Positions 5,269 through 56,025 of a DNA stretch of 64,000 nt are shown piece by piece. Numbering within the stretch: the first letter of the stretch is position 1; every line of letters begins with the position of its first letter. The DNA is from Pristiophorus japonicus (taxonomy: Eukaryota): assembly GCF_044704955.1 (NCBI RefSeq), contig NC_091989.1, forward strand, positions 56,358,001 through 56,422,000, in the 5' to 3' direction. Below the pieces are notes generated by a model. The model did not search any database, was not told the DNA's origin, and saw only the letters and a program-made list of their open reading frames with translations. The translations under genes and the position numbers were made by a program.

Positions 5269-5809
5269 TGTTGTGGAAAAATATTTCCAAGACTGTATAA
5301 TATATAAAGAGAGGTTTATTAAATCGGAGACAAAGCTTTGGGAGAAGTGTTAGAGACCCCTGTCTCTGAACCAGCTTCTCAATTTGGTATCTCCAGTGAG
5401 GTTCTTTTATCTTACAAATTACGTCACTTTACATCACATGCTTTAGCACTATTCCTTAAGTCTAATCATCGCATTACAAGATTTACAAAGCTTTTCATAC
5501 AATTACTATCCAAGGCTGAGCTCTTGATATAAACCAGCCTCGCATTGTGACAGGGCATTATAAACAAGTGCAGGCTTTTTGGCACCGGTATAGACAAACA
5601 TACCCACACTTATCTCTCCAGTCGTTCATTATCTCACTTTCCTATCTCCATAACTCAAGGCCAGCATACCTTGAAGTCTAACTGTGTTTTTTTATATAAA
5701 GCATAATGCATCAGTATTGTCCCTTACAAAATTCATTAAAGGGGAAAATAAAAACAAATGTTTGGTCCCGTATACTAGTCAAGTATATGTCCAAAAATCC
5801 GCTCCAACA
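5269..5809 (-). repeat. ERV-A 3' LTR (541 bp)
   Basis: Direct repeat of 16539-17078 (about 8 substitutions plus 1 indel by eye); preceded on the minus strand by the polypurine tract CCAAAAGGAGGAATAT; minus-strand AATAAA at 5315-5320. Confidence 0.95.
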
Positions 5810-5948: not shown

Positions 5949-7318
5949 CTACCCTTCAAAAAGAGAGTGGTCGGTGTCAACGTCGTCTGTTTCTTCATCC
6001 TTGGTGTCTTCAGGTATTTCCATCAGGTGTGCTTCTTCTTCGGCGATTACACTGGCTACTGGCATCAGTCGGGCCATCATAACTTTACAGCAGATATTAA
6101 AACACCCGATAATCAGACAGCAAGTAATTATTATTACAACCAGAATAATTACTCCATGCATAAAATAGGACCCCCAGGATCTCCCTAACAGCCAGTCAAA
6201 CCAGCCAGATCCTCCTGCTGTCGTGGATAACTTCTTTACCTCCATTCTTATGTGATCAGTGAGGTTGGTTATGTTTTCTGAATTATCGGGAATGTAAGTA
6301 CAACATTCAGCTCCAATTAAGGCACATGTGCCCCCATTTTGTATATAATCTAGGGCCATTCGGTTCTGGAGTACCATTGTGCGTATTTCAGCCATTATGC
6401 CCTCTATTGCTTCAGTAGTGTCATTAACTATCTGTTCCATTACCCTCTCTAGGTTACGTAATTCATCCATGGTGCGTCCTATCCCGAATGGGAGCATCAT
6501 GACCCCAAATAGCCTCTCTACCGGGGTAAGATCTCGTCTTAGTCGACCTAGTGTCTGTACTTCTGCTAAAGTACGTACCCGTCTGACAAAAGGGACCACA
6601 TATCCCAAATAACAGGACCCCCTCCAGTCCTGAGGCAACCAGGGGTAGGCCTTATGCCCACACACAAAATAAGTGCCATTGTATGCTGTTCGATTCGATC
6701 CCAATCTCTCTTTCAGCCCCCGTCGCCACCTAATCTTAGGGTCCCAGTCCTGGCTACTTGTCTGATTCTTCAAACCCTCTATTTCAAAGAACCCCTGGTT
6801 TGTTGTTTCGCTGGCTATTATGTTCCACCTGGTGAGGTTAAAGTATCCTGCTACAAAACCTGTTTCCTCACCAGTCAGGTTTCTAGTGAAACAAATGTCA
6901 GCGGTGGGCCTTCCAACTCCTGAGGTGTTGGTCAAAACCAGAAACGGGGGTCGTACCGACCTATTGTATTCCGGCTGGTACCATCCGTCAATGCATCCAA
7001 AAGGTAACCCCCCGATCTCCACGTTTCTTTATCCCCACTCTGATTCCAAGTATCATTTACTTTCCCTGTACCGTTTTGTCGCATTACCCACTCCGCTACT
7101 TCCGAAATGTTAAGGGAGATTGACCTCAAAGGGATGCCTCCTTTGCTATGTATGGGGATGTGCGAACATACCCAGCAACTGGAAAAGTTCTCATTTTGCG
7201 CATAAACACAAGACATGTACAAAAAGGTATTCACATGTAACTCTCGTTTCGGTATAGCTAGCAGGCCGGACCTAACACGAACTATGATAATCGCACCGAT
7301 CGCAATATATAGTTTCAT
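5949..7318 (-). pseudogene. env: ERV-A envelope, gamma-type (one frameshift near 6990)
   Basis: Signal peptide MKLYIAIGAIIIV; CWVC (CXXC); furin site RLRR; ISD LQNRMALDY; CX6CC (CALIGAECC); hydrophobic TM; upstream acceptor TTGTTTGTCTATTTACAG near 7397. Confidence 0.93.
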
Positions 7319-7431
7319 CTTATTACTCTATAATTAACAAATAGTCAAAGGCAAAATGGCCGTATGGCTTGCTTGAAGAATCTCTCGCTGTCAATCTGTA
7401 AATAGACAAACAACAACAACTAATACATGTG

Positions 7432-10400
7432 CTAAACGGCTGGTTCAAAAACCTTATGCTGGGTCCAATGCTTCCATTTTCCGTTCCCTTTAACATCGAT
7501 GCAGGCACAAGTGTCCTTGCTGATTATAACCTCATACGGTCCTATCCATTTTTGGGGCAAACCCCGGTTTTCCCGGAAGGACCCTTACCATAACGCGACT
7601 TCCCGCCAACGGGACTTCAGGGAGCTTTGTAAGCTCTGCTTCCGCGTCTCTTTCTTCCTGATTGTCCCTAACTAATTTACGCATCCCTTTTAATTGAGTA
7701 CTTAGTTCCAAAACATACCGTTTTATTTTGTCTTTTAATGGGCCTACATCGGTCCCCCCTGTTATGATGATCTCTGGTAATTGCATCGCCCTTCCTGTCA
7801 TTAGTTCATAAGGGGTTAATCCGGTTGTCCGGTTTGTCGTGGCTCTTAACTTCATCAATATAATGGGTAATACTTCTGTCCACGTTTTTCCTGATGTTTT
7901 CATAGCCTTTGCCAGAGCGTTCTTAAGGGTATGGTTCATGCTCTCTACCATCCCAGAACTCTGCGGGTGATAGGGGTTGTGGAATTTTTGTTTTATGCCC
8001 ATCAGCTGGCATATTGTTTTTACAATTTTTCCGGTGAAGTGGGTGCCTTGGTCAGAATATCCTTGCCACTGTTGAGGCAGTGCAATCACGTGTGGGGAAA
8101 GCTTCCACCCACCGGGTAAATTGATCTATAATCACTAGGCAATATCTTTTTCCATGGGATGGGGGCAAAGGACCTGTGAAATCAATTTGTACATGTTCCC
8201 ATGGCCCCCGTGGACAGGGCTGGTGTCCCATTTTAATTTTAATGGGCCTGCCTGGATTATATTGTGCGCACGTAACGCATCGATGGCAATATTTGCCGAT
8301 ATCTCTCCCCATCCCTTTCCACCACCAATCTCTCCCAAGACTCCCGGTCATGGCCTCTCGTCCTGAATGAGACAGGCCATTATGCAACTCCAATAAGGTA
8401 TTCTGTATGCATTCAGGTGCCATTACCTTGTCGTTTCGTCTCCAAACGTTATCCTTCCCTTGCGTTGCGCCCTGCTTTGTCCACATACCTATTTCCTCCT
8501 CAGAAGTGTCCTGGTGTAGTTTCTCAATACTTATCTGTTCGACTCGGGTCCCAGCGGCACTGACTGAGGCTTCCTCACACTCTTCCTGTTCTAATGCCTT
8601 CTGTGCAGCTACGTCTGCAGCTTTATTTCCCTGGTGACTCAGCCAATCTGGACTGGTTCGGTCCGGCTCCCTCCTGTGGGCTTTAATTTTAATAACCGCT
8701 ACCTGTTTTGGTTTATTACTGGCTGCTAAAAGAGCTTCTGTTCTCAGCTGATGCTTTATGGGATGTCCGCTAGTTGTGATAAAACCCCTTCTCCCCCATG
8801 CTGTCATATAATCGTGTACTACCCCGAATGCATATCTACTGTCCGTATAGATATTAACAATCTTATTTTCCGATAATTCCAGTGCCCGGGTGAGGGCTAC
8901 CAGTTCTGCCACTTGAGCTGATGACCCCCCATTAATTCGCCCTGATTCCACTGACTCTAGATCTTGGTTAACTACGGCCCATCCGGTACGAGATAGTCCT
9001 CTATGTATTTTCGTGAGCCGTCCACAAACAAGGTTTGTTCTGCAGTTTGAAGGGGGGCGTCTTTTATTCTATCCTCTTCCATATCCTCACATACCTCTTC
9101 GCAAAAGTGGGGTTCCCCTTCACCCATCATACCTTCTGCGGGGTTGTTTCCTACATCCCTAATTATGGTTACCGCTTTGTTGGGTGTTAAGAGGACTGCT
9201 TCCCACTTTGCCCGTCTTATATTAGATACGGTTCTCAGTTTTCCTGTGTTTAACATTTCTACCAATGTGTGTTTAGTGTGGAGAATGATGTTTCCAGTCA
9301 TCACCACAGGCTCGTTTAATTTTTACCGCCCAAGCTGCGCAATCTAGCGCGGCTATACATCAGGATAACCCAGTCACCACCGAGCTTTCGGTGGTAGAGT
9401 AATAGGCTATTGGTCTCCTTTTATCCCCGTGATCTTGGGTGACCACGGCCATATAGAACCCACCTTCATTGTTACAGTGGATGTGGAAATCCTTACTCAT
9501 GTCAGGCAGTCCCAATCCAGGTGCGGAAACTAGTTCTGACTTGAGTTTATTATACGCCTGTTCTTGTTCAGGGCCCCACTCTATGAGGTCTAGGGCCGGT
9601 TTCCCCCCTTTCACTAATCTTTGTATTGGCTCAGCAATTTTTGCAAAATCAGGGATAAAGTTCTGGCTGTAATTAAAGAGGCCCAGTATCTTCCTCACCC
9701 CCCTTACCGTTACTGGTCTAGGCATGTCCTTGACAGCCTTTTTCCTATCCGAGGGCATTTCTTTCAGCCCCTTTGAGAGGCAGTACCCTAGGTACAGGAC
9801 CTGGGATTTCCCTACCTGGGCCTTTTTAGGGTTAACCTTAAGGCCCGCCGTTTCCAGAGCCCTTAATACTAAGTATAGGGTTGCCTGATGTCCTTCCTTG
9901 GTTTCTGAGGCTATTAATATGTCATCGACATATTGTAAAATACTATTTCCTGCCGATACCTATATTTGTTTTAGTATATCACTCATGACACGATGGAATA
10001 TGGCAGGACTATTATGGAATCCTTGTGGTAATTGGGTCCAAGTATATTGTTTATCCTCCATCGTGAAGGCAAATTTTTCTTGTGATTCTGGGTCGAGGGG
10101 AAAGGCCCAAAAACCATTGGCTATGTCCAGGACTGTAAAGATCTTATGTTCAGGGGATAATCCATCAAAAATTGTGGAGGGGCTGGCCACTATCGGGTGT
10201 AATTTGGGGGTGACCTTGTTAAGGGCAGTGTAGTCGATAGTGAGTCTATAACTCCATCTGGTTTCCCTACCGGCCATGTTGGGGAGTTAGTGGTGCTAAC
10301 TGTTTCTTTTAAGATACTCTTTTCCACTAGCCCTTTTACTATTTCTACAACCGCTGTTCTAGCTTCAGGTCTTATAGGGTATTGTCGGTGTGGTTTATGA

Positions 10401-10942
10401 GGTGGTCCAGGGACTTTAATAGGATCCATCTTCGCCTTTCCAGTATCCAATTTTGTCTGTGCCCAGACCCCGGGCACAGAGGCACATATGCCTCCATACC
10501 CTCCAGTCCCAATAAGCCAGTCAGTTTTTGTGGCTGTAGCTACACCTATACTTTCCACATGGTGGGCTATCTGTCCTAAATCTCCCTTACTGCCATCCGC
10601 CTTTGGCCATGTCAGTTTCCCCTTGCCGCAATCAATCAGGGCCTTAAATTCCTTCATTACATCATTCCCCAATATTGTTCCCTCACGATTCTTGTATACG
10701 TAAAATCTCATGGGTATATATAAGTTATCAATTTCCACCAATTGGATGGTGCTCAGGTAGGCCAGTGTGGGCCGTCCATCTATTTCGTTTATCAGAGCCT
10801 TCTTGTCGGTGACGGGAAGGGGCATATTGGTAATGGATATTGAGGCTCCCGTGTCCACTAGCATCTCATACTGTCGGCCCCCTACTAGTGCAGACACATA
10901 TATCCTTCCCTCCTTTTTACTTTGTATAGGGGCTGCCGGACA
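7432..10942 (-). pseudogene. pol: ERV-A pol (PR-RT-tether-RNaseH-IN), multiply frameshifted
   Basis: LVDTGAS protease; LDIANGFW..YTWTQLPQGFHNSP and QYVDD (9921-9932) RT; LFVDGS, SAQVAELVAL, IYTDSRY RNase H; HHCC, QIDFTGP, SDQGTHF, YHPQSSG integrase. Confidence 0.95.
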
Positions 10943-11321
10943 TCACCGGGTGGCTTTGTACGCCTGCTACTTCTGGTATTCCTGTTCTGACAGGGTCCTT
11001 GCCTTATTAGGATAGCCATTTTTACCATAGCATGTCGCTTCCAGATGCCCTTTCTTACCACAATACGTACATTGCTTTTCACTGCCTTTCCCTTTGCATT
11101 CCCTGGCAAAATGGCCCGGTTTTCCACAATTATGGCAAGTCCCCCTTTTCTGCCCTCCTCCTGTTCCCGTGGCAGAGACCTTTTCCTGCTTTATCTTTTT
11201 CTTTTCTAATCTGCTAAAGCTTACTGTTTTAGCCTTTTTCAAAAGTCTCTTTTACACCTTTGTTGTAGGTATTAGGCATCCTAGGGCAACGGCACCTGTA
11301 GGATAAGGGTAGAATTAAATA
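10943..11321 (-). pseudogene. gag: ERV-A gag C-terminal remnant (nucleocapsid, two CCHC knuckles)
   Basis: [14 protein letters not shown] and [14 protein letters not shown]; in frame with the protease across TAG (10967-10969) and TGA (10943-10945). Confidence 0.9.
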
Positions 11322-11883
11322 TGTAACTTGTACCATAAAATGGCTACCAGTGAAGCCTCAAGGGATTTATGTTAGCTGAAATAGACCGCATTCCTGGAGA
11401 CTGATACTTGTTGTTTCCCACACACAGGACCAGCAAGCAAGCTCTGCAGGTGTCTCTAATCAGCTAGGTCTCAGGACCAAATGTTCTAGTAACAATACGG
11501 CTCTGTAGCAGGATGGAGATAAGGAGGCTACCCAATGCCAGCATCCAAGGATAGTAAGATAAGAGAGGCCCAGGCCATGTTACAAGACACATGAGTCATC
11601 CCTAGCAACACACCCCTTAGCAACACATCTCTTGGCAACACATGAGCCACTTTACGTTTAGAGACTAACGCTATTGGTCTAATGTAACTGTAGTAAACTG
11701 TTGTATGTAACTGTAGTAAATTGTTGTAAAACATATAAAGATCCATGAAACCCTTTGTTCAGCGGAGAGAAGCCTGGACTCAGTCTTGTGATTTCCTCCC
11801 CGCTGGTGTGAATAAAGGCCGCACTGGCATTGGAACCGACTCTGAGTGTTGAGTGATTCTTCTGACAAACACTAACACTAACA
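11322..11883 (+). repeat. Element B 5' LTR (562 bp)
   Basis: TGTAAC...CTAACA termini; TATA-like CATATAAA near 11732; AATAAA at 11811; immediately followed by the PBS; 3' part repeated at 15397-15466. Confidence 0.88.
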
Positions 11884-11884
11884 G

Positions 11885-11902
11885 TGGCGTCACGAACAGG
11901 AT
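11885..11902 (+). promoter_or_regulatory. Primer binding site, tRNA-Ser(CGA)
   Basis: TGGCGTCACGAACAGGAT is complementary to the vertebrate tRNA-Ser(CGA) 3' end ATCCTGTTCGTGACGCCA. Confidence 0.85.
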
Positions 11903-12425
11903 TTCGGGGTCGCTGGGCGCCCTTGGAAAAACCCGGGTGAGTATACAAAACGATTTTTAATTATAAAGGGTGCGGAAGGTGGATGCTGGTTGATCGACAC
12001 GAGGAGATGGTCCAATATCTTAAACACCTAGCCTGAGCCTGAATTAAGAGGACTTTAGTCCCACGTGACGGCCAGGAATTAAGTAGGTGCCGGGAACACA
12101 CTTGGACCGTGGGATCGTGATACTGAAAGGCATCTTCCAGACCCAGCAGTGTAATTTGTAATATACCCCGGGGTAGAACAGCGGCTAACGGAATCCAAAC
12201 CTGCGAACAGGGTCGGACCAACGGGCAAGAGCGGTGGTAGGTAGTCGTTAAGGTTAACGTAAGCACTGCGGGAATTGCTTAAACGCGTTTTAAGAATTGT
12301 ATAAGTCTGTGTAACAGCAGAACTTGTGACCTGACAGTAGCTAGGAGACGGTTTACTACAAGTTACGCTAGGTAGAAAGCGGACCTCTGAGAGTAGATAC
12401 CTAATGGATCTAGTCCTACCCAGGA

Positions 12426-12642
12426 ATGGCCATGAAAGCAAGTAAACTCGAGTGGGGATCAGAAGGGTCCATTACCCGCCATCTGGCGGAAAAGCAAAAG
12501 AAACTAATCGAAAAAAATGATTAGAGCAGGGTGGAATCCTCAGGAACTACCAGCAAAGCAACGGGAATGGTGGGAGAAGGAACGGAAAGTCAAAAAGAAA
12601 AAAAAGGCTGTGGTCTTGATACTGCGAGCCCACGTAAATTAA
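12426..12642 (+). pseudogene. Basic matrix-like ORF remnant of element B (one frameshift)
   Basis: MAMKASKLEWGSEGSITRHLAEKQKKLIEK / MIRAGWNPQELPAKQREWWEKERKVKKKKKAVVLILR downstream of the PBS; Trp/Lys-rich like retroviral MA. Confidence 0.4.
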
Positions 12643-13979
12643 CATAGGAAGCTAAGATTTAAAAAAAACTGACGGTGATTGTCTTAAGTGAAGTGTGGAA
12701 GAGGAATAGAGCTGGCCAAAAAAAAAAGATTAATAGGAAAGAAGAGAGACTTTTGTGAACGTCTGTCTTAAATGAGAAGTGCCTGTGTGATTTTGTGACT
12801 GCGGAATGAATTTTTATGTTGTCATGTTTCTGAAAGCCTGGTTGGAAGAGGAATGCAAGTGTCTGTTTATTTTAGCTAACCCTTTGTAGTGTTGTCCTGT
12901 ATGTGGGAAGTTTTAAGACATTTTAAGTTAGAAACGCAGGTGTGGATTTATTCGGATGATTCGGATGATAAGTTACGGAGCTAGGAAATGTACAAAGGAT
13001 AGGTTTGTTGAGCAAAAGATAAAAAATACATGGTCCCGGTGGTTAAAAAAAAGAATTTACTTGTCGAAAGAAAACATGCAATGATTGATTGGGTTGAAAG
13101 ACATAAATTTAGTCTCGGAATGAGATAAGGAATGCTTTTAAAAAAAAAAAGAGCTTCTAGCAAAAAAAAAGGTTTTAAATAAAGATTGAAATTACAAAGT
13201 TTGAATTGGGATTTTGAGATATTCAGAGAAGGCACAGAAAATAAAGACGCCACTTTAAAAGTAAACAAAATGTGTTTGTGATGGAAAAGGACATAACTTA
13301 CTAAATACTAGTTGATGTTTGCTGTGAAAAAGATATTGGTTTAATTAGAAAAAGAAACAAAATTTGGAAGAGGTAAAAAAACACTTAACATTGATAATGA
13401 TTTTAAATTATGAGAAAGTTTCAATGCAGTTTGAAAAGATTTCCAAAATGGACAGTGTTTATCAAGAAAAGTCCCGAACAGTCTAAACAAGCAGGAGGGT
13501 TTTGAAGATCTAAGCTATGCGAACTCAGCACAGAGAAAAAAAAAAACTGGAAATTAGAGAATCTTACTGAATTCTTAAATTCTTATAGAAAATGGAACTG
13601 GCACAGAAGTTTAGATTTTGTGCTGAGAGAAATTAAAAAAAAACAAAATTGAATTTCAGTAAACAAAATTGCTATTAAAAATGTGTGGTCTCGTTTTATA
13701 TAAAAAAAAAATGTATTTGGCAAGTACTTGAATTAGAAGTTAAGAAAACATTGGAGTTTACTCTAAAATGCCGTCTTCCCTGATGAGAAGATTTTTATTA
13801 TTTATGCTGTTTAACGGATTCCTAATTTCTAAGCCAGTTTTGAAGGCACAAAGACTTTTTTTTACAGATGATTACGTGAAGTCACGTAATGACATCAGGT
13901 CTTCTTACAAACCTGGAAAGGAGTTAACCCTTTCCATTGACAGCCGTTTAAGCTGCTGAACATTATTAGTTTGGATTTC

Positions 13980-14210
13980 TTAATAGAAAAAAAACTCACC
14001 TAACAGAGGAAACAAAAATAAAAACAGAACTAGCTTATGTAATAATACTTGCCTGATACAATAAAGAAATAGATACTCAATAAAACAAATTGAAGAGTTA
14101 AAAGCTAAGATAAACAGGCTGGAAGAGATAACGGGACTAGACGGATAGTGCAGTGCGCAGCCATAGCACCATCACCTATGGCAATAGAGCCAATGTACCC
14201 CACGGTGGGT
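13980..14210 (+). pseudogene. Coiled-coil plus Pro-rich gag-like remnant of element B
   Basis: KQIEELKAKINRLEEITG heptads followed by APSPMAIEPMYP; interrupted by stops. Confidence 0.35.
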
Positions 14211-14253
14211 AGGTGTAGTCCACAAACCCAACCTAACGGTAAAGCAGACAACG

Positions 14254-14367
14254 ATGTTCGGAGGAATAGCTTTGGCCTTGGTCATTATAGGAGTTTGGGT
14301 AATATTTAAGTGGGTAAAGACACGGGCGCACGCCCCACAAATTCAACTCGAAATGGTTCGATTATAA
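14254..14367 (+). CDS. 37-aa single-pass membrane micro-ORF upstream of element B env
   Basis: MFGGIALALVIIGVWVIFKWVKTRAHAPQIQLEMVRL*; hydrophobic helix followed by basic residues; ends just before the acceptor TGCTTCTGATTTCGCAG (14388). Confidence 0.4.
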   Translation: MFGGIALALVIIGVWVIFKWVKTRAHAPQIQLEMVRL

Positions 14368-14473
14368 CCTGTGCTTCTGATTTCGCAGGGTGACAGGGAT
14401 ACTCGTAGCGCAAAACCTAACCCCTGGTGACGACCAGGCCGTCTGTTTAAAATTACAGATAATACCTACCAGA

Positions 14474-15396
14474 ATGGGAATACGAATGGCACTCCTCGTA
14501 ATATGGATAGCCCTGCGACATGCACGTACCCTGGACAACACCGACGGATTGCAGCGCACTCAGGAAATAAACAACTACATGAACTATGGAGTCTTGTTTA
14601 ATTTAACGGATGGAATGTGCATCCCAGCAGCCAAGGACTGGAGCAAGGACAGGACTTATTTTAATGCATAAGAGTATGTGTACAGTGCTCCACGGGTATA
14701 AGGAGCAGCTGCATTAAACAGAGGGATGTCAAGGGGCCTGATGAATGTACTTTCTGTACTTTCGGCATAATTTGCACGCCTCCGGGACAATCCCAGCAAT
14801 CAGTCATCCGCAAAAAGGGAGTGGGGCTGTGTGGGTATTACGAGGAGGTGGGGGCGGCTGCAATATCATTGTATGTATGCTTCTCACCCCCTCCGACACC
14901 GCACCCCATAAGAACCACAACATTGTCCGAGGAACTGCCTTGTCCCATAACTACTAAGGGACCAGAGAATGGGATTGTAATGTACAACGAAGGGGAATTA
15001 TTGTATGATAATGTTAAACATGAAATTGTGCCTGTCCTGATCAATATTTCAGGCATCCAGATGCCGGAATACTGTACGGAACAGTCAAGGAAAATGTACA
15101 ATGTATTAAGTAAAGTTGTAATGCAGCAGGCTGCCGATGCAATGGGTGCCAGTAGATTCCGAGGACAGGGGTCAGCCCTCAGGATAAAGAGGGAAATAGA
15201 CATACAAGGATTAAATGAGAAGGTGGAACAGCTTAGAGGGGTGATGAAAGGGTTATTAGAGAGGGTGGAGCAAAACCAGGAAGACCAGGCCAACTTAGGA
15301 AAGGAGGGTGCCAAAATCCAGTTGGATGACATCTCAGTCCTGGAAGCTCACGCCAAAACCATCAATCACCTCATACAGGAAAGCAAAGACAGGGGC
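14474..15396 (+). pseudogene. env: Element B envelope glycoprotein, lokiretrovirus/paramyxo-F-like, 3' truncated
   Basis: Signal peptide MGIRMALLVIWIAL; Pro/Thr linker; GPENGIVMYNEGELLYDNVKHEIVPVLINIS; furin-like RIKR; long heptad IDIQGLNEKVEQLRGVMKGLL; no CXXC motif in the part present. Confidence 0.62.
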
Positions 15397-15466
15397 AAAG
15401 GCCGCACTGGCGTTGTAACCGACTCTGAGTGTTGAGTGATTCTTCTGACAAACGCTAACACTAACA
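15397..15466 (+). repeat. 3' terminal remnant of the element B LTR
   Basis: AAAGGCCGCACTGGC..GACTCTGAGTGTTGAGTGATTCTTCTGACAAAC..CTAACA matches 11814-11883. Confidence 0.92.
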
Positions 15467-16517
15467 CGTTCACAGATAGCTCACCACTCGCCCAGGAGTT
15501 TGACCTGATCCCTGAAGGTATTTCTAAATTTAAAACTCTTTTTTTTTTTACTGAGCTAGAAGCTTTCGTGTCAAGGTTTTACACAAAGGAAAATGGGAGC
15601 GTTTTAAAAGGCATTCTTTATCTCATTCCTAGACTAAATTTATGTCTTTCAACCCAATTGCATGTTTTCTTTCGACAAGTAAGTGAGCGTGTCAAATAAA
15701 TTCTTTTTTTTTTTACTACCGGGACCATGTATTTTTTTATCTTTTACTCAACAAACCTATCCTTTGTGCATTTCCTAGCTCCGTAACTTATCATTCGAAT
15801 ATATCCACACCTTCGTTTCTAACTTAAAATGTAATACCATAAGGTTCAGTTTCTTAAACTTCCCACATACAGGACAACACTACGAAGGGTTAAAAAAACA
15901 TTCACTCTGTTTGGAAAAAGTGGATGGAGCTAAAACAGGCAGGCAACTCTACACCTTCCCAAACAGGCTTTCATTCATTCTGCAGTCAAAATCACTCAAG
16001 TACTCTCTTCATTCAAAATAGACACTCACAAAAGTCTCTCTTCATTCAACAAAGCTTATGTCTGGATCCATATGTCACTTAAGATAGTCACTATCAGCTT
16101 TTTTATGGCATTATGTAATTACCCAAGTTACAATTAATGATAGGAATTAATTAATGACCCGGGCAGCCCGCGTTTTACATTCCCTTCCTTACCTTACATG
16201 TTCGCCAGTCTTGGACGTTTCCCTTTGTTTCTGTAATACTCACGGCCACGACTACTCTGTGGAGACCCTTTGTCTTCGCAACAAAGCTAGCGTGTTTCCT
16301 TACCACCGGAGTTTTGGCTCTAGGTTGGAGTGATCAGTTCCCTTCCGCACCGACCTTATTTACTAAAGGGACAACTCAAACTGGTTAGTCAGCCTCTTCC
16401 CGCTATCTACTTACTTGTATCTTATACACTATCCCATCGTGCCCGTACACCTTTCTTTTCAGTCTCTAACACCAGATTCCAGATACTGTCTTAAGTGATC
16501 ACGTCTGATCGGACAGT

Positions 16518-16535
16518 ATCCTGTTCGTGACGCCA
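16518..16535 (-). promoter_or_regulatory. ERV-A primer binding site, tRNA-Ser(CGA)
   Basis: Plus-strand ATCCTGTTCGTGACGCCA, 3 nt inside the 5' LTR; the same 18-mer as the element B PBS. Confidence 0.88.
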
Positions 16536-16538
16536 TTT

Positions 16539-17078
16539 TGTTGTGGAAAAATATTTCCGAGACTGTATAATATATAAAGAGAGGTTTATTAAATCGGAGA
16601 CAAAGCTTTGGGAGAAGTGTTAGAGACCCCTATCTCTGAACCAGCTTCTCAATTTGGTATCTCCAGTGAGGTTCTTTTATCTTACAAATTACGTCACTTT
16701 ACATCACATGCTTTAGCAATATTCCTTAAGTCTAATCATCACATTACAAGGTTTACAAAGCTTTTCATACAATTACTATCCAAGGCTGAGCTCTTGATAT
16801 AAACCAGCCTCGCATTGTGACAGGGCATTATAAACAAGTGCAGGCTTTTTGGAACCGGTATAGACAAACATACCCCCACTTATCTCTCCAGTCGTTCATT
16901 ATCTCACTTTCCGATCTCCATAACTCAAGGCCAGCATACCTTGAAGTCTAACTGTGTTTTTTTATATAAAGCATAATGCATCAGTATTGTCCCTTACAAA
17001 ATTCATTAAAGGGGAAAATAAAAACAAATGTTTGGTCCCGTATACTAGTCAAGTATATGTCCAAAAATCCGCTCCACA
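16539..17078 (-). repeat. ERV-A 5' LTR (540 bp)
   Basis: Direct repeat of 5269-5809; flanked by the PBS and TSD CTAC. Confidence 0.95.
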
Positions 17079-35198: not shown

Positions 35199-35589
35199 AG
35201 GTGGATATAAACGATCCTATGACACTATTTGAAGAAGACCAGGAGAGTTTTCCCTAGTGTCCTGGTCAATATTCCACCCTCAACCAACATCACTAAAACA
35301 GATTATCTGGTCATTATCTCATTGTTGTTTGTGGGACCTTGTTGTGCGCAAATTTACCTACTTTACAATGGTGATTACACTTCAAAAATTAATAAATGTT
35401 TGTGAAGAGCTTTTTTGCAATGTTGAGAGCAAAAAGATGCTATACAAATGTTATTTTTTATTTTTCTTTCGCTTTCTCTCTAGATGATTATGACTGCCAT
35501 CAGTGCCTTTTACCTTTACTGCATAAGCTGATTCATTAAACATTGTGTGTGCACTGAAGCAAAAAAACTCCAGACATAAATAAACCAGA

Positions 35590-45923: not shown

Positions 45924-46513
45924 CTCCAGACTATTGTCGCTCTCCCTAAGGTCTGGCAAGCCAAGGATGGACGATATGGCCTTGAGACTTTCAGTAGTGA
46001 CGGAATACTCTTTAGTTCCGTTGGCTGGATGCACTCTTGTCCGTGTCTGTGATGTCAACTGCCGCGATCTTCCTCCCTCCCCAGAGATTTTGCCTCTGGC
46101 ATTGGGAAGACGCATTCGGATTGTTTTGGCTGGAGTCCCACTCTGCTTGGTCGACTTGGAGCCTCTTCCATCATTGTGAAGAGGTCGTCGGCTTTGGGTG
46201 GTGGGTACCGCGCCTGTACCGCTGCTCGGTTGATCTTCATCTCCTCGTGGTCGATGAGCGGTCTGTGCCTCGTGAATCTGCAAATGGATCTGCACTTTGA
46301 TGCCTGGTTCAGCTGAAGGTGGAGGCTTGCACAGCCTTTGAGCAAGCGAGACGTCATTCGCCGGAGAAGTACGCAGAGGTCTTCCAGTTCCATCAAATCT
46401 TCCCCATCCACCTTCTATCAAGCAGCATTGGCCCATCACCTGAAACAATCCAGTGGTAAATCGTGCATCGCTCCCTCATGGGATACTCTTATGTCCGCAC
46501 TACCAATAACTGG
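45924..46513. repeat. 590-bp direct duplication of Gypsy-2 sequence (second copy 53043-53634) flanking ERV-C
   Basis: Both copies begin CTCCAGACTATTGTCGC and end ACCAATAACTGG; their paired ORF translations are near-identical. Confidence 0.95.
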
Positions 46514-46814
46514 ATGTTTCAGGGGAAGAGGGAGAGGAGGTGCAGGGCGGGAACAATATGATGCCTGTCACAATTGTGGTCAGATTGGACACTGGGCTAG
46601 AACTTGCCGGGCAAAACAGCAACAACCAAATTATGATTGGACTCAACAGGCAGGTAATAGAGCACACCCTCCCCCTTCAGGACCCAACCCGTATGCGACC
46701 CAAATCCAGGTACATGCTAGACCTCAGACTAATTTCTCTGTGCAAGATCCATTTGGATCACAGAATCAAAAGCAATTCAGCCAACCACCAAATTGCCCGT
46801 ATAATGATCAATGA
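46514..46814 (+). pseudogene. gag: ERV-C gag C-terminal remnant (one CCHC knuckle)
   Basis: RGRGRGG..CHNCGQIGHWARTC; ends in TGA-C in frame with pol. Confidence 0.88.
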
Positions 46815-49800
46815 CGCCCAATCCCAGACCCGAGTGCTGCGAACAAACAGCTACCCGTCGTTTCATTAAATGCCATAGGAGAACCTGAAGTAAAAATACG
46901 AATACAAGGGAAGGATATCCCATTCCTGGTGGATACTGGTGCCACCTATTCGGTCCTTTCAAGGGAAGATACGAGGGGAATTCCCACTTCCACTAATCAA
47001 ACCTCAGTGATTGGACTATCTGGACACGCACAGCAAATGTTTTTCTCCAACCCTATCAATGTACAATTAGAGGATTACGAAGATAATCATTCATTCCTAC
47101 GTGACCTGTTATGTAAAATGAGTGCCACAATCCTCTGTTCCCCAGCTGGTCTGGAGGTTCGGGTCCCCATAGATAAATGTGGCGCATACCCACTACTTCA
47201 ACCCACAACTCCCATATTGTATGCCTGGAAAAATTTGGATCCCACACTAAGCAAAACCCTATCCTATTTGGTTGGTTCATATTGGTGTGTAACAAGGTTA
47301 ATCACAGACTACCTCAAATCTCAAACCTTGGGCAAGTGGTACGAAACATTACACTGCACAGCATATTGTGACAACACGGGATCAGATGCTACAGCACAAA
47401 TCTTTTATCAACCATTCCTGCACCAGAAACATCAATTGATGATCGAACAAATCTTTATCAGACCCGAAGGGATAGCGGCAAGGGTTGAATTACCCTCCCA
47501 CAGTCAGAGCTTGTTTAGGGTTGAAGAGAGCGTTCCACACTGCACCCTTGCGGTTGCAGGCACACATAAGCCCCAGGATTTGGGACGAATGGTTAAAAGA
47601 ATGCAAGGATCCCCAGTACAAGAGGAATGGCACACACGTAATGGAACTTTGGGGCAACATGAAAGGGGGGGAGGCTATTCTGTCAAGTTGAATGGGAAAA
47701 TATACTTCGATGTTGTCTTAGAAGAAAGGATGCTTTCAGCCACTAGCTTCCCAGTACAACAAAGCACAGCAGAGCTTCTTGCTAAAGTTCCAGAACAACT
47801 ATGGTCTACACACGCTAATGAAGTAGGAAAGATGCTCACCGCACAACCATATAAGGTAGCGATCAATTCAACCGCCCCACTCCCCAAGAAGCCCCAATAC
47901 CCCTTGTCCCCAGCCGCAGAACAAGGTATCGAGCCAGTCATCAAGTCCCTGCTGGCCCAGGGAGTAATCGTTCCAACTAGAAGTCCATGTAACACTCCGA
48001 TCTTTCCGGTGCAGAAGCCCAATAGTGACAAATGGAGATTTGTCCAAGACCTACGAGCCGTGAATCATTCGGTATTCCCAACTTATCCGGTGGTACCCAA
48101 CCCGGCAATTATACTTGCCAGTATTCCGGCATCATCAACCTATTACACAGTAATTGATCTGTGTTCAGCATTTTTCTCAATACCCATTCACCCAGAGTCC
48201 CAATTCCTGTTTGCCTTCACGTATAAAGGACGCCAATATACGTGGACAAGACTCCCGCAGGGATTTACCGAGAGCCCTACCATATTCTCACAATGCCTAA
48301 AGAGGGATCTGGAAGATGTAATTTTACCAGCAGGTTCTACACTTGTGCAGTATGTTGACGACTTATTGCTCGCCTCACCCTCCAAATTGGCCTGCGAAAC
48401 GGACTCCCTTGTGTTATTAAAAGCTCTGGCCTCGAAAGGACACAAGGTGTCAAAGGCAAAGTTACAATTTGTCTCACAAAAGTTTTGGTATCTAGGGCAC
48501 GAATTGGTCAGAGATACGAGACAATTGACACAAGACCGAGTAAAAGCAATCTGCTCTGCCCCACTACCAGTAACCAAGAGAGAAATGAAACACTTCCTCG
48601 GCATGACAGGATACTGCCGGCAATGGGTTATGAGTTATTCCGAGATCGTTAGACCACTGTTAGACATGTCCATGCCTGCACGACCAGAGAAGTTGATTTG
48701 GAATGAGGTATCCCGGAATGCTTTTCAGAACCTTAAACAGTCCCTCACTTCAGCACCCGCCTTGGGATTACCAGATTACACTAAGCTATTCAACTTATTT
48801 GTGCATCACAAGTCGGGTTTTGCACAATCTGTTTTGACTCAGTTACATGGGGACAGGCAGCGACCGGTAGCATATTTCAGTACCCAACTAGACCCAGTGG
48901 CACGCGGACTACCAGGATGTCTTCCTTCATTGGCAGCAGCTTATTATGCTATGCAACAGGCTCAGACAATAACTCTAAATCATCAGACCATTTTGTATAT
49001 CCCACACTCTGTCGAGATTTTACTTACTACGTGTGCCACCCAACACCTAACCTCCGCAAGAACCACTAAATACGAGGTCGAACGGTTATCAAATCCGAAC
49101 CTTATCATCAAAAGATGCACTACCTTAAATCCAGCCACTCTACTCTCCACGGAAGACGACGGTGAACCCCATTCATGTGAAATGGTAACCGAATTAGTGA
49201 CTAAACCACGTATCAATCTAACAGATGTACCAATGTGTAACCCTGATCTAGTGTACTATGTTGACGGATCAGCCCTACGAAATGATAGGGGCCAACCTAG
49301 AGCGGCTTATGCAATTGTAACTCAGTTTAATGTTGTCGAAACAGCCTCTCTTCCAGACTCCTTTTCAGCCCAACAAGCCGAATTGTTTGCGTTAACTCGA
49401 GCCTGTATTCTGGCTGAAGGACACACAGTTAATATCTACACTGACTCCAGGTATGCTTTTGGTGTATCACATGACTATGGACAAATTTGGAAGATTCGCG
49501 GGTACCTGACTTCTTCAGGAACCCCTATCAAAAATGCAGAACAAGTGGAAAATCTCCTGCGAGCCATTCAATGCCCCTTGAAACTTGCCATTATCAAATG
49601 CCAAGCACATACAGGCCAGTCGAATGAGGTGGCACTTGGGAATGCCAGAGCTGATAATGCAGCTAAGTCAGCAGCTCTGTCAAAAGGGGGGATGCAGGTG
49701 TCATTGTTCCCACTAAGGAAAAATAATTGCTCAGACCCGCCACCCACTATTAATGACGTGCTGGCCTTTCAGACACAGGCCAGTACGGAGGAGGTGGTGA

Positions 49801-50924
49801 CCTGGACGAAGGATCAATGTTATAAAAATCCAGAAGGAATATGGGTTCACCACGACGGCTGCGTGGTGGCCCCCAGATCCTTACTTCCATGGATTGCCCG
49901 ATGTGTTCATACATTCACACATGCGGGCAAAGGGGGATTGGCAGATTATATTTTGGCAACTTGGTATGCACCAGGTATTTCAGCAATTGCAAAACAAATC
50001 TGTGAAAATTGTGTTACCTGTCAGACAATGAATCCGGGTAAGACGGAAAAAGTAGAATCTGCCTCCCACCCAAATCCAGTCGGGCCTTTTGTACATTTAC
50101 AAATGGATTTTATTGAATTACCTATGTGTATGGGATTCAAGTATGTATTAGTTATTGTAGATGTGTTCTCTAGATGGATTGAAGCCTTTCCATGTAAAAA
50201 GGCCGATGCCACTACTGTTGCTAAATGTTTGTTAAAAGAAATTGTACCGCGCTTCGGAATCCCTGCTAAGCTTTCTAGTGATAACGGGTCACATTTCACG
50301 GGAACTGTTATAAGAGAAATGTGTAAAGCTTTGCAGATTAACCAACGTTTTCATTGCAGTTATCATCCACAATCAGCTGGACTTGTTGAAAGATATAATG
50401 GAATGCTTAAAAATAAGCTGGCAAAACTATGCAATGACACTGGACTGAAATGGACAGAACTGCTGCCCTTAGCTTTGATGGTAATGCGATCTGCAACCAA
50501 CAGAACAACAGGCCTGTCACCGCATGAGATAGTTATGGGACGTCCCCAACGACTACCTTTTACAGCACCATTTACTGCAAAACAGATGGACATCCACAAA
50601 ATGGAGGAAAATATGTTGAATTATTGTATTGCACTAACCAAATGTATTTCCAGCTTTCATTCACAGGTAAAGGAAGCCCAAGTCAAGCCAGCGGAAGGGA
50701 AGTGTCATAACCTGGAGCCAGGGGAATTCGTTTACATCAAGATTTTTAAAAGAAAAAGCAGTCTACAGCCAAGATTCGAAGGACCATACCAGGTCTTGCT
50801 GGTGACCAATACTGCAATCAAGGTAAAGGAAAGACCAACATGGATCCACACATCCCATTGCAAACGGGCACCCGACCAGGAGGAAGGGAAGAAGGAATCA
50901 GAGGAACAGAAAAAGGAAGACTGA
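46815..50924 (+). CDS. pol: ERV-C pol: PR - 2H phosphoesterase - RT - tether - RNaseH - IN, uninterrupted frame
   Basis: LVDTGA; LHCTA/PHCTL; IDLCSAFFS, LPQGFTESP, QYVDD; YVDGS, SAQQAELFAL, YTDSRY; HHCC, QMDF, SDNGSHF, YHPQSAG, GPY; protease appears to lack its LLG-RD motif (small in-frame deletion). Confidence 0.95.
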   Translation, partial: RPIPDPSAANKQLPVVSLNAIGEPEVKIRIQGKDIPFLVDTGATYSVLSREDTRGIPTSTNQTSVIGLSGHAQQMFFSNPINVQLEDYEDNHSFLRDLLCKMSATILCSPAGLEVRVPIDKCGAYPLLQPTTPILYAWKNLDPTLSKTLSYLVGSYWCVTRLITDYLKSQTLGKWYETLHCTAYCDNTGSDATAQIFYQPFLHQKHQLMIEQIFIRPEGIAARVELPSHSQSLFRVEESVPHCTLAVAGTHKPQDLGRMVKRMQGSPVQEEWHTRNGTLGQHERGGGYSVKLNGKIYFDVVLEERMLSATSFPVQQSTAELLAKVPEQLWSTHANEVGKMLTAQPYKVAINSTAPLPKKPQYPLSPAAEQGIEPVIKSLLAQGVIVPTRSPCNTPIFPVQKPNSDKWRFVQDLRAVNHSVFPTYPVVPNPAIILASIPASSTYYTVIDLCSAFFSIPIHPESQFLFAFTYKGRQYTWTRLPQGFTESPTIFSQCLKRDLEDVILPAGSTLVQYVDDLLLASPSKLACETDSLVLLKALASKGHKVSKAKLQFVSQKFWYLGHELVRDTRQLTQDRVKAICSAPLPVTKREMKHFLGMTGYCRQWVMSYSEIVRPLLDMSMPARPEKLIWNEVSRNAFQNLKQSLTSAPALGLPDYTKLFNLFVHHKSGFAQSVLTQLHGDRQRPVAYFSTQLDPVARGLPGCLPSLAAAYYAMQQAQTITLNHQTILYIPHSVEILLTTCATQHLTSARTTKYEVERLSNPNLIIKRCTTLNPATLLSTEDDGEPHSCEMVTELVTKPRINLTDVPMCNPDLVYYVDGSALRNDRGQPRAAYAIVTQFNVVETASLPDSFSAQQAELFALTRACILAEGHTVNIYTDSRYAFGVSHDYGQIWKIRGYLTSSGTPIKNAEQVENLLRAIQCPLKLAIIKCQAHTGQSNEVALGNARADNAAKSAALSKGGMQVSLFPLRKNNCSDPPPTINDVLAFQTQASTEEVVTWTKDQCYKNPEGIWVHHDGCVVAPRSLLPWIARCVHTFTHAGKGGLADYILATWYAPGISAIAKQICENCVTCQTMNPGKTEKVESASHPNPVGPFVHLQMDFIELPMCMGFKYVLVIVDVFSRWIEAFPCKKADATTVAKCLLKEIVPRFGIPAKLSSDNGSHFTGTVIREMCKALQINQRFHCSYHPQSAGLVERYNGMLKNKLAKLCNDTGLKWTELLPLALMVMRSATNRTTGLSPHEIVMGRPQRLPFTAPFTAKQMDIHKMEENMLNYCIALTKCISSFHSQVKEAQVKPAEGKCHNLEPGEFVYIKIFKRKSSLQPRFEGPYQVLLVTNTAIKVKERPTWIHTSHCKRAPDQEEGKKESEEQKKED

Positions 50925-52319
50925 ATAAGGAACTGTATGGACTATGGGGACTGATGGTGCTGGGCTTGACAGGGTTTTACTTCGCATTATTGATTACACC
51001 AGGGGTACAGACCCGCCACCGAAGGGAATTGCACGTAAACGTATTTATGGCGCTGAGTCATAGATATGTTCACGAAAGAAACTTGTCAAGTTGTTGGGTG
51101 TGTTCCCATGTGCCTGTCCACTCCAGGGGGGGTATTCCCCTGAGATCTGTCCCCTTTAACGAATCAGAAATAGTCGAATGGTTGACAGTGCAAAATAGGA
51201 CAAAACTAACTAAGGGGCCAGAAACGAAGGAGCAAATAGAATAGAGGTCGGCAGGGTATAAACTTACAGCCTTCCAGGGATGGTACCAACCCAATTATGA
51301 TAATAACCATCAGCCTCCCTTCCTAAGCATTACTCCCAGAATAGAAAATCCCGAAGGTATAATATGCCTAGTGAGTAATGAGACTAAAGGACCAGAAATG
51401 GGACGCAGCAAGTGTTCCCAAATGATTAAATGGCAAGCCACAACTAATTCCACTGAGAGAAAGATAGCAACCCGTTGGCTGGACAACGGTCCATAACAAA
51501 GCCCCAGGTAAAGGGTGGGAAGGTGAGACCACTCGAGTAGGGACAGTGCGAAAGGACCAGGAGCTGACGTCCTATAATTGCACCTACTTTATTTGTGGCC
51601 ATAAAGCCTACCCATGGTTACCAGCCAACTGGACAGGGTCCTGTTACTTAGGATATGTGGTACCCCTTATCAGATCAGTAAAGACTCTAAGGGAGGCCTA
51701 TGGAAGTCACAGATTTAAACGGGATTTGACGTGGCTAAACGGAATATTCAAGGTAATGGTGCCACCCTATAGAATAGCATCAACCGAATGGCAGTTACGG
51801 GAACTGGCTAACTTAGTCGAATCAGTAGCCAACGCAACTTCCCAAGCCTTTGAAGGGATAAATGACGAAATGGTAGCTATTCGAACAGTGGCTCTCCAAA
51901 ATCGTATGGCCTTAGATTATCTCCTAGCCAAGGAGGGAGGAACATGCGCATTAATAGGTGAAGAATGCTGTACATATATCCCAGATAAATCAGAAGATAT
52001 CGGCAGTCTAGCTGAAAACATCAGGAAAAAGGTAATAGAGTATAAACAGACAGTTGGCCAGGACGGTATCACCTTGTGGGGTTGGGCATCAGGATGGTTG
52101 GGAGCCCTGGGGAAATCTGTGGTACAGGGTTTGATCATATTCCTGCTGATAGTCTTCGCCCTGTATCTATTATTTGTCGTCGTTAAGTGTTGCTGTGCCA
52201 GGGTGGGAGAAACTATGTTACCTACCGAGACCACGGCTAGAGTTATGGTAGCAACAACTGCTGAAGGCTCTTGTGTGGAAATGGAAATGGAGAGACTGTA
52301 CAAGATCAGAATGGATTAA
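50921..52319 (+). pseudogene. env: ERV-C envelope, gamma-type (stop at 51242, frameshift ~51.5 kb)
   Basis: Hydrophobic signal; CWVC; furin site RFKR; ISD LQNRMALDYLLA; CALIGEECC; TM LIIFLLIVFALYLLFVVV. Confidence 0.93.
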
Positions 52320-52349
52320 GTTGTCCTTGTGAAGGACAAAATGGGGGAA

Positions 52350-53042
52350 TGTGGAAATGTATTTTTATCTAAGCTGATACCATACGGTATTTGTGTGCCC
52401 TTTGCAATATATATATATCAAAATGGAGTCCTGGCCCTTCCAGAACTTTCTGCATTTTAGCAGTCAGCTTGCATAAACAGCTAAACCTGGTTTGAGATGG
52501 CTGATGGCCATCAGACAGCTAGGAGACAAGTCATGCTGAGACAAGTACCTCCCCCCCCCCATGGTGCTCTCCTATTGTCTACACAACAAGAGTTCCATGT
52601 CACCCCACCCTTATCTTCTAGCCATTATCTCTTGCAGAGACCTCATCCATTTGATGCAAACAGATAAACTGACCAGGAAATTGAACTATCCTGACACAAT
52701 ACAAGACAGGTGATAGCCCATTACCTATGACTCATGGAGTAATGGCCGGCTGGTCAACTGATAACCCTGACAAAAGGAAATATCTGGATACCATGTCAGG
52801 ACCAGGATATAGTAATTAACTCTTTATCTGCATTCACTGACTGTGAGACAGAGCAATACACAGGGAGAGGCCATAACTTGGGTTTTACTGTATAAATATC
52901 TTGTTAAACTGAACCATTTCGGTGGTGTTCGCTTAGCCCTTGACTGAGTGTAACCTGCCCCTTGCTAGCAAGCGAATTAAAGAAACTTCTACCGGAGCTG
53001 TAAGTGTCGGAGTCATTCGTTTCAGAGGTCGAGATTTCGACA
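52350..53042 (+). repeat. ERV-C 3' LTR (693 bp)
   Basis: TGTGGAAAT...ATTTCGACA inverted termini after the PPT; TATAAA ~52891; ATTAAA ~52976. Confidence 0.88.
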
Positions 53043-56025
53043 CTCCAGACTATTGTCGCTCTCCCTAAGGTCTGGCAAGCCAAGGATGGATGATATGGCC
53101 TTGAGACTTTCAGTAGTGACGGGATACTCTTTAGTTCCGTTGGCTGGACGCACTCTCGTCCGTGTCTGTGATGTCGACTGCCGCGATCTTCCTCCCTCCC
53201 CAGAGATTTTGCCTCTGGCATTGGGAAGACGCATTCGGATTGTTTTGGCTGGAGTCACACTCTGCTTGGTCGACTTGGAGCCTCTTCCATCATTGTGAAG
53301 AGGTCGTCGGCTTTGGGTGGTGGGTACCGCGCCTGTACCGCTGCTCGGTTGATCTTCACCTCCTCGTGGTCGATGAGCGGTCTGTGCCTCGTGAATCTGC
53401 AAATGGATCTGCACTTCGATGCCTGGTTCAGCTGAAGGTGGAGGCTTGCACAGCCTTTGAGCAAGCGAGACGTCATTCGCCGGAGAAGTACGCAGAGGTC
53501 TTCCAGTTCCATCAAATCTTCCCCATCCACCTTCTATCAAGTAGCATTGGCCCATCACCTGAAACAATTCACAGTGGTAAATCGTGCATCGTTCCCTCAT
53601 GGGATACTCTTATGTCCGCACTACCAATAACTGGTATCGGGTTCCTTGTTGTAGATGCGCAGCTTTGCCTGAATCAGGATCAGCTTGGGTCATTGTGCTC
53701 TGTTGCCCCACAGCCTCTCGAATGCCTTCTGGCTCATTATTGATTGACTCGCCCCCGTGTTCAATTCCATGGAGACTGGAGTGCCGTTGAGTTTGACTTT
53801 TAACATTATCGGAGGGCTTTTGGTGGTGAAGATGTGTATTCCATATACTTCCTCTTCATCCTCAGGTTGAATTGCCTCTCCTGCTCATTCAGCGTGATCC
53901 TCGCTGGATCGGTCGTCCTCTCCTGACTCTGCCACGTGGTGAGTCACAGGTCTTTTGCACATTTGCTGGAGGTGCCCCATTGTTCCACAGCCCTTGCACA
54001 CATAGTGCTTGAATCTACATTGATGGGCTCTATGACTGCCCCTGCAGCGCCAACATGGTGTTAATGGATACGCATTCACGCCCTATGGCAGACTCAGTCA
54101 CCCTAGGTCTGGCCTCTGCGATCATGTAGGCCCTGCCATGTACAGTTCTGCCTGCTGAAGGCATTATTTTATGCACAGTACTTTCCGGTGAGCTTCGATT
54201 CTGTGAAGATATATTTCGTGTTGTCGCTCGTGGATATGAAAGCCTGGGCTATCGTGATGGCCTTGCTCAGATCTAGGGATTCGGCAGACAGCAGTTTGCG
54301 AAGAATGACCTCGTGGCCGATTCCAAGCACGAAAAAGTCCCATAACATTTCCCCCAAAGATCTGGCAAATTCGCACTGTCCCGCAGGGCATCTTAGGTCG
54401 GCGACAAAGCTCGCCATGTTCTGGCCCTCGGAGCGATGGTGCATATAAAAGCGATACCTGGCCATTAAGATGCTCTCCTTCAGTTTGAGGTGTTCCTGAA
54501 CCAGCATGCACAGCTCTGTGTAGGCCTTGTCCGTTGGTTTGTCCAGTGCCAGCAGATTTTTGAGGAGGCCATATATCGAAGACCCACATACGGTGAGGAG
54601 AATCGCCCTGCGTTTGACCGCCGTCTCAGCCTTGTCCAGTTCATTGACCACGAAGTACTGGTCGAGACACTCAATGAAGGCTTCCCAATCATCACCCTCA
54701 ACAAAACTTTCCAGAATACCAACGGCAGCCATTACCATGTGAAAGTTTGTGATCCGTTATTCGTTGCCAATTGTTATGTTCAGAATAACTCCACAAGACT
54801 GTATTGTAAGCTCAAACTGTTGTGACCTTGGTCTCTTTAATGTAACTCCAGAGTGAGGAAGCAGCATGGTAGATTACCTTTTATACCTGCTTGCCCAGGG
54901 TGCAGAGGTGACCTTTAGGTCTCCCACAGGTGTGCCCCCTGGTGGCAAGTCTTACATATTGGTGAGGTTTACATACATACATGACAAGTTATGCCACGGA
55001 TAAGTGGCCAGAAGCTCATTTCCGGGTCAAATATGACACCTCGGTTGCGAACTGTCTGGTTCGGTCTCAATTTGGCATGCGCACGCTCCAGTGCAAAAGA
55101 GTTTGGTTCAGAATATTGCATCCAACATACTCTGATCCTAAGATGGTAGTTGATTATCAGATCCATTTGAGCCTTTTGAATAGGGGAACAGAAATGGAGC
55201 TTGGAACCTGTCATGACCTTCTAGACGAATCCCATTTGACAAGCTCCATGCCCAGCTTGCATCTACCATTCACTGGAAATCATATTTCAAATCATGATTC
55301 TATTATTTGAAACATTCGAAACCACAATAAGAATTGATGGATATTGTTCACCGATAAAAGTAAAGGCCGCGTCCTGTTTTAGTCCTCTGGCCAGTGACAA
55401 ACAATTCAGTCTATCTTAACCAAAGTCAGTGCTTAATATGGTCATTTAAAGAAACAGAATGCATTATATTCAGAGCTGAACTAAGACTGTCCTAGAAGTA
55501 TAGAAGGTTCGAGGAGAATTAATAGCCATAGCCCTTGTGCAAGTACATAGCCAAGAACCACTCCTTGTTCAGTCATTTTTCTTCTAACAATTTGTTATCT
55601 TGTGTGCAATGAATTGCTTTTACAGTAAAACTGTGTTCAGCGCAGCAAAATGTCACCATGACGGGAGCCAGCAGATTCAGCGTTACTAACTGACAGTTTA
55701 ACAAAATGGGAAAGACAGCAAGTTCAAGTCCAGACACAGTAAATACTCGGCTCAGCTTGAAACTGATGCATCTTTGACACTGATTTCTAAGACTCTCTAA
55801 TCTTTCTGCTGCAGAATGCAGCTCCAGTAATGAGGAAACTATAGTGAGAACATACTGAACCCTGATCTTAAACTGATTACACACTTCGCAAAATAAATGT
55901 AAATACTATGTAATTATGAGATTCAGTCAGTGCACAAAGATTAAACACTTCCAACTGGGAACACTGATTAATCTGTAATATGGAATGCATAATACATTTT
56001 AAGAGCATTATAAATTGTAATAACT

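Follow-up and report, generated by a model that had tools for sequence, protein, structure and literature searches.

Two endogenous retroviruses in a 64,000-nucleotide stretch of the Pristiophorus japonicus genome (contig NC_091989.1, positions 56,358,001 to 56,422,000; hereafter the window) raise the question of how elements with very different pol genes came to carry related env genes. A sequence-only reading of the window had described the envelopes of ERV-A and ERV-C as close homologues, had named the ERV-C lineage as a plausible donor of the ERV-A env and had supposed that both might use one receptor. Our analysis indicated that the pol of ERV-A is SnRV-related whereas its env is gamma-type and belongs to a family spread across sharks; this env was probably acquired from another retrovirus, through ancient recombination where pol meets env. 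ERV-C is a class I provirus whose env is a remote relative within that family, and it likely represents a cousin of the donor rather than the donor itself (Table 1).

Table 1. Positions of ERV-A, the nested element D and ERV-C in the window
Feature	Position	Strand	Remarks
ERV-A provirus	pol in pieces 10942..7432, env 7318..5949	-	between two LTRs
ERV-A 5' LTR	16539..17078	-	4-base target duplication flanks provirus
ERV-A primer-binding site (PBS) and leader/degraded 5' region	15467..16535 (PBS 16535-16518)	-	partly common to element D
ERV-A gag 3' remnant	10950..11296	-	two zinc knuckles
ERV-A PR-RT-RH-IN	7432..10942	-	several broken pieces; SnRV-related clade
ERV-A pol-env gap	7319..7431	-	113 nt, pol stop to env ATG; splice-acceptor-like pyrimidine tract; putative switch site
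ERV-A env, gamma-type	5949..7318	-	two pieces, frame change near 7000; TLV_coat E 2e-12
ERV-A 3' LTR	5269..5809	-	8 differences from 5' LTR in 536 nt
Element D	11297..15466	+	inside ERV-A, opposite strand; no pol
Element D parts	LTR 11297-11883, primer site 11885-11902, LTR remnant 15397-15466	+	
Element D env fragment, non-gamma	14381..15396	+	RIKR site; CWVC absent, CX6CC not seen; broken and truncated
ERV-C remnant overall		+	gag end, open pol, env, polypurine tract, one LTR
ERV-C gag remnant	46514..46814	+	zinc knuckle; 5' LTR and most of gag missing
ERV-C PR-RT-RH-IN	46815..50924	+	single open frame, 1369 aa, class I
ERV-C extra domain	47145-47780	+	between PR and RT; two HxT motifs
ERV-C env, gamma-type	50954..52319	+	CWVC in SU, RFKR cleavage site, LQNRMALD, CX6CC; TLV_coat E 7e-17
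ERV-C polypurine tract and single 3' LTR	52339..53042 (LTR 52350-53042)	+	LTR TG...CA

All motif pairs quoted in the earlier reading were present in the sequence, and the ERV-A pol stop (ending at 7432) and env ATG (7318) lay where it had placed them. Comparison of ERV-A with ERV-C by tblastn recovered env in three segments (49% over 77 aa, E 3e-23; 38% over 52 aa, 6e-7; 44% over 250 aa, 5e-61) and pol in five pieces at 30-37%. In alignments, the env core was 50.0% identical (216 columns), RT 36.2% (304 columns) and integrase 34% (111/326), so that pol identity fell short of env identity in both regions. Homology of the envelopes despite divergent pol genes was thus borne out, but the word "close" was not, since 40-50% is an ordinary distance in this env family. 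Both envelopes bear gamma-type traits, namely CWVC in SU and, in TM, CX6CC after an immunosuppressive-domain motif, together with a basic cleavage site, heptads, a membrane anchor and a TLV_coat match; the immunosuppressive motif of ERV-A is shortened by a small gap.

The two pol genes were assigned to different branches. In RT trees containing no foamy, ERV-L or lokiretrovirus rows, ERV-A grouped with P0166/P0168, L007, P0030, P0029 and L020 (SnRV), with UFBoot 100 in one tree and 98/97 in a second; its RT was 78% identical to P0166/P0168, of which P0166 is a Mustelus protein, and 37% identical to L020. Mustelus-type pol proteins (P0166, P0168, P0028) were 66-85% identical to the ERV-A pol. 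In an RT check for lokiretrovirus, likewise with no lokiretrovirus row, the ERV-A relative P0168 scored 340 bits against MLV, 167 against Ty3 and 148 against foamy virus, and its grouping with L020 argues against a lokiretrovirus identity for ERV-A. The RT of ERV-C fell among class I rows, 42-46% identical to L021, L025 and L035 versus 34% to L020, and its pol scored 508 bits with MLV versus 193 with foamy virus. Judged by its sequence, the ERV-C pol is class I and epsilon-like, its exact place among class I being unsupported, as no supported sister emerged. A constraint uniting ERV-A, P0168 and ERV-C was rejected for RT (p-AU 4.4e-5), and one uniting ERV-A with its pol neighbor L007 was rejected for env (p-AU 0.023), where ERV-A and ERV-C came out as sisters (99/98) in a tree limited to the 11 elements whose pol is known; the pol and env trees are therefore incongruent. 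In the integrase tree, ERV-A stayed with P0029/L007 (99/97) and L020 left the clade on a long branch, and integrase windows displayed no rise toward ERV-C at the 3' end. A breakpoint inside integrase was ruled out by this tree and these windows. Integrase keeps ERV-A with P0029/L007 to its end, and the switch therefore falls in the gap between 7432 and 7318, the very interval proposed for breakpoint mapping. Higher env than pol identity, incongruent trees and a switch in the pol-env gap all uphold the env swap itself.

Env swaps between retroviral classes are already known, and fish and frogs provide cases in which a gamma-type env accompanies a pol that is SnRV-related or class III; ERV-A provides a shark example with a mapped boundary. 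One such published element is ERV-SA.a-Ppe, whose host code Ppe, at our guess, may stand for a sawfish. In the available parts of their text, Chen et al. (bioRxiv 10.1101/2021.11.23.469661) report frequent pol/env conflict among fish and amphibian ERVs, six cartilaginous fish included, describe an SnRV-related pol group, and assign to ERV-SA.a-Ppe a pol of class III together with an env of class I. ERV-A resembles this element in joining a class III/SnRV-related pol to a class I gamma-type env, but the parts of the source describing the latter mention no paired relative with a non-gamma env, unlike the ERV-A/element D pair. XtERV-S of Xenopus (PMC8278194; the frog case is reviewed in PMC10536682) likewise has, according to the accessible text, a class III gag-pol, a class I env and a serine primer site; the primer site of ERV-A looks like one for tRNA-Ser. 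It is described there as ERV-L-like, with a 5-bp duplication, encoding a dUTPase but lacking a zinc finger, whereas ERV-A has two zinc knuckles and a 4-base duplication, yielded no dUTPase in a domain scan and groups with SnRV. SnRV itself, placed in clade Huo in the sections available (PMC12193657, PMC6001957), belongs to the same RT clade as ERV-A despite the modest RT identity given above, but carries a non-gamma env (no match to the gamma-type profile, E 0.27) and an extra domain between RH and IN that is missing in ERV-A. In the elephant shark, SnRV-like (CmiERV lineage I) and epsilon-like ERVs occur within one cartilaginous fish, as the available text of PMC4422223 relates, and further context is provided by the accessible parts of PMC4977317, PMC8672886 and PMC10435555.

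The direction of the swap is where element D becomes relevant. Its 5' segments are 78% and 82% identical to the 5' region of ERV-A, and its primer site consists of the same 18 nt, which we take to be tRNA-Ser-like. Contigs of two sequencing runs join 13274 to position 8784 in the ERV-A RNase H, the shorter flanks measuring 40 and 30 letters, and these joints would weakly tie a D-type 5' end to an A-type pol; among the 15 of 82 joints listed, none connected an A-type integrase to a D-type env. At E<=0.001, 18 relatives of the D env were found, and all 10 that were looked up came from sharks or a ray. No meaningful Pfam match was found in the 14 scanned of these 18, a word-index search with the D env found no match among longer proteins, single-protein scans of viral contigs yielded no match, and none of the listed sequencing runs was an RNA run.

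Similarity to other non-gamma envelopes emerged through these relatives. P0149 reached Z 7.8 against the L020 (SnRV) env and 8.3 against the L035 env (<=0.9 against 10 controls), and P0164 reached 4.0 and 8.1, respectively (controls to 2.4); the D fragment alone gave -0.6 and 1.3, and P0151 likewise gave no signal. We take L035 to be WDSV-like; it is class I by pol, yet its env is of the non-gamma type found in the D family. With a long TM ectodomain that lacks CX6CC, P0149 and P0164 resemble the SnRV and WDSV envelopes, which P0151 and the D fragment alone did not. Support from hhalign was weak, at 24% and 16%, the profile missed the L020 env, and BLASTP of P0164 against the L020 env found no match. 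The P0164 fold model was too poor (mean pLDDT 44), with no match at E<=0.001 in the structure search. The Atlas places P0164 near clusters of baculovirus F, gypsy env and paramyxovirus F (0.91-0.92; Fusion_gly 0.91). For lokiretroviruses, considered as kin of ERV-A and element D, the available text of PMC7947760 reports an env with similarity to Fusion_gly, a Pfam domain that drew no match in the 14 scanned D relatives. P0164 (739 aa, from Chiloscyllium punctatum) is unbroken, with a cleavage site and a membrane anchor, and could be a young or host-kept env.

Element D thus likely carries an SnRV/WDSV-type envelope, the link being transitive via its relatives, and this favors ERV-A as the recipient of the swap without proving it. 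Element D may display the pre-swap envelope, and if its env is native to the ERV-A lineage, the swap's direction follows from it. By the accepted route, genomes co-packaged in a co-infected host would have recombined by template switching, and a gamma-type env would have entered the ERV-A lineage in place of an earlier non-gamma env like that of element D. We tentatively entertain, at somewhat less than an even chance, the broader idea that the window holds both states of one swap: element D would belong to the SnRV-related shark lineage of ERV-A and retain that lineage's original, F-like envelope, of a family that occurs in sharks and rays and has no Pfam match, and ERV-A would be the recombinant, having taken its gamma-type env from a pool common to class I and SnRV-like viruses. 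If true, sharks would offer a dated, paired system for the effect of a change in fusion machinery on a retroviral lineage. The D env family would point to little-described non-gamma envelopes linking shark ERVs, SnRV and WDSV; no paper on it was found in the literature searched, most subscription papers lying outside that search.

The swap may also be read differently, with the ERV-C line as an additional or even the sole recipient and the env family as a shared shark pool, native to neither line or to the SnRV-related side. Non-gamma envelopes occur in both L020 and the class I record L035, and epsilon-like ERVs with gamma-type env are read as recombinants in the accessible parts of Chen et al.; by that analogy, the ERV-C line may have been a recipient too. 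In L007 (585-5816) and L008, which are pol neighbors of ERV-A, the pol is SnRV-related and the gamma-type env belongs to another subgroup (29% identical to that of ERV-A). They likely represent a second swap on the same pol branch, so that more than one swap is needed. However, the other class I records with both pol and env (L004, L011, L021, L032 and the gammaretrovirus-like set) carry a gamma-type env, L035 being the exception, and in element D a non-gamma env is linked with a 5' end resembling that of ERV-A. We consider this reading unlikely and retain entry of a gamma-type env into the ERV-A lineage as the preferred one.

A direct transfer of env from the ERV-C lineage to ERV-A, together with one common receptor, is very unlikely. 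Sisterhood of the two envelopes among elements with known pol speaks for it; only ERV-A and ERV-C have a known pol among the 23 rows of their env clade (96/96), which comprises 14 shark-named rows, 2 from ray-finned fish, 5 unnamed and the 2 window genes. The env homologues numbered 27 (17 shark-named, 4 from other vertebrates, 6 without a name), and 12 short env pieces were left out before one env-family tree was built. ERV-A env was sister to P0001/P0002/P0006 (100/99; 68-71% identical) and ERV-C env to P0184/P0009, P0184 being an intact relative whose identity to the ERV-C env pieces is 94-98%. Eight envelopes outside the ERV-C family were closer to ERV-A (up to 71%) than is ERV-C (50%), and the env DNA of ERV-A and ERV-C was 62% identical over the best 463 nt. 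The backbone of the env tree was unsupported, with the ingroup at only 40/87 in a 22-row tree. A single clade of both families was not rejected (p-AU 0.315), and ERV-A with the ERV-C family alone was borderline (p-AU 0.055). The donorship ascribed to the ERV-C lineage is thus unsupported, and ERV-C may be at most a distant cousin of the donor.

The regional profile of the envelopes bears on the receptor. Identity between ERV-A and ERV-C was 35/59 in the CWVC block, 32/46 at the SU C-terminus, 59/113 in the TM ectodomain and 15/64 in anchor and tail, and dropped to 22/95 (23%) in the middle of SU, with P0184 as the ruler for the ERV-C family. The remark that even SU aligns by eye accordingly holds for the CWVC block and the SU C-terminus, but not for the middle of SU, where ERV-A was more like 14 of 23 other envelopes than like P0184. 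The WYQP block is common to many members of the env family; the blocks that align by eye are a conserved family scaffold and therefore lend no support to a shared receptor. CWVC lies about 30 residues into SU, which leaves no room for an N-terminal receptor domain. Both envelopes lack the N-terminal extension of P0003, P0007, P0015 and P0018, a point in favor of the earlier reading, but the short N-terminus is also found in P0011, P0016, P0019, P0021 and P0023. Syncytin-2 was the best match both in the env profile search and for the P0184 SU model (mean pLDDT 64; E 5e-5, the sole match at E<=0.001), with 12% identity and a TM-score of 0.30 on the target, and this fold match implies no shared receptor with syncytin-2. 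The syncytin-2-type SU resembles the ERV-A and ERV-C envelopes in having CXXC near its N-terminus and no N-terminal receptor domain, and the available text of the same source places receptor contact in loops C-terminal to CXXC (bioRxiv 10.1101/2024.03.17.585361). Both env genes are broken in the window; their products are predicted from sequence to have been disulfide-linked gamma-type fusogens, binding via mid-SU loops as syncytin-2 does. Because the likely contact loops form the divergent middle of SU, the receptors of ERV-A and ERV-C likely differ, and the notion of one receptor finds no backing here.

A descent without any swap, in which both lines inherited the env of a common ancestor that evolved more slowly than pol, would agree with the presence of gamma-type env in both pol branches (L007/L008 as well as the class I records). 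Both topology tests oppose it, as do RT and env identities for all 171 pairs of 19 elements carrying both genes. Env minus RT identity had a median of -14.5 points, and env exceeded RT in 28 of the 171 pairs, 23 of which involve two records with class II pol, L056 and L064. We take these two to be type D betaretrovirus-like, known recombinants. They acted as a positive control, with env identity to gamma-type donors far above RT identity, as their mixed ancestry in the available text of PMC3758190 would have it; their excess was +33 to +50 points versus +14 for ERV-A/ERV-C, the type D swaps having a nearer donor. Among the 136 pairs without class II pol, which are not independent owing to shared ancestry, env exceeded RT in 5, ERV-A/ERV-C being the largest (+13.8; next +4.7), and env was the faster gene in the other 131. 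Moreover, L007 is nearer to ERV-A in pol (RT 43.5%) but farther in env (28.6%). Slow env evolution is hardly tenable on these figures.

The LTR pair of ERV-A (K2P 0.015, 98.5% match) corresponds to an age of about 34 million years under the shark rate assumed in the available text of PMC4422223, or about 3 million years under the mammalian rate quoted there, the rate being uncertain. A contig from a run with another organism code and another study than the window (record 19 of run X6) covers 7200-8024 with 19 differing letters; it spans the pol-env join, which is therefore not an assembly product. That ERV-A is a chimeric assembly product, or two neighboring elements joined by chance, as the repeat-rich region and the nested insertion might suggest, is extremely unlikely given this contig and the matching LTRs and 4-base duplication that enclose both pol and env. 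Contigs from three sequencing runs join 11258 directly to 15469, and other ERV-A copies therefore exist without element D. The ERV-A family itself may lack most of gag, its spread being helped in trans; no gag domain was detected by Pfam in the degraded 5' regions of ERV-A and element D, so that the name "gag" for their shared segment is unproven.

ERV-C is a remnant whose env lies in three pieces, with an in-frame stop at 51242-51244 and a frame change near 51480. A direct repeat of 590 bp with 11 differences (45924-46513 and 53043-53634) flanks it. This repeat was ruled out as the ERV-C LTR pair, being Gypsy-type DNA; the true 3' LTR has no second copy in the 64-kb window, and ERV-C therefore cannot be dated by its LTRs. 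The repeat and the loss of the 5' LTR and most of gag suggest that a filled copy and an empty one underwent rearrangement with each other. Further LTRs of Gypsy type were observed at 45123-45337 and 54770-54986. The extra domain of the ERV-C pol, presumably resembling a 2H phosphoesterase, had no Pfam or PDB match. It matched the L020 pol between RH and IN (33% over 95 aa, E 2e-8), the corresponding linker of L032 and of L011, and the end of the env frame in L035, with 11 of 522 targets matched, itself included, and by sequence it looks like a domain that moved within retroviral genomes.

Elsewhere in the window, an LTR element at 31887-35199 (+), with 265-bp LTRs (96%) and gag-like and protease frames, was Gypsy-type and not retroviral. 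Long GC-rich tandem repeat arrays occupy 57466-59444 and 41150-41731, and LINE-type reverse transcriptase fragments (RVT_1) were found at 60973-62214 (-) and 2987-3670 (-).
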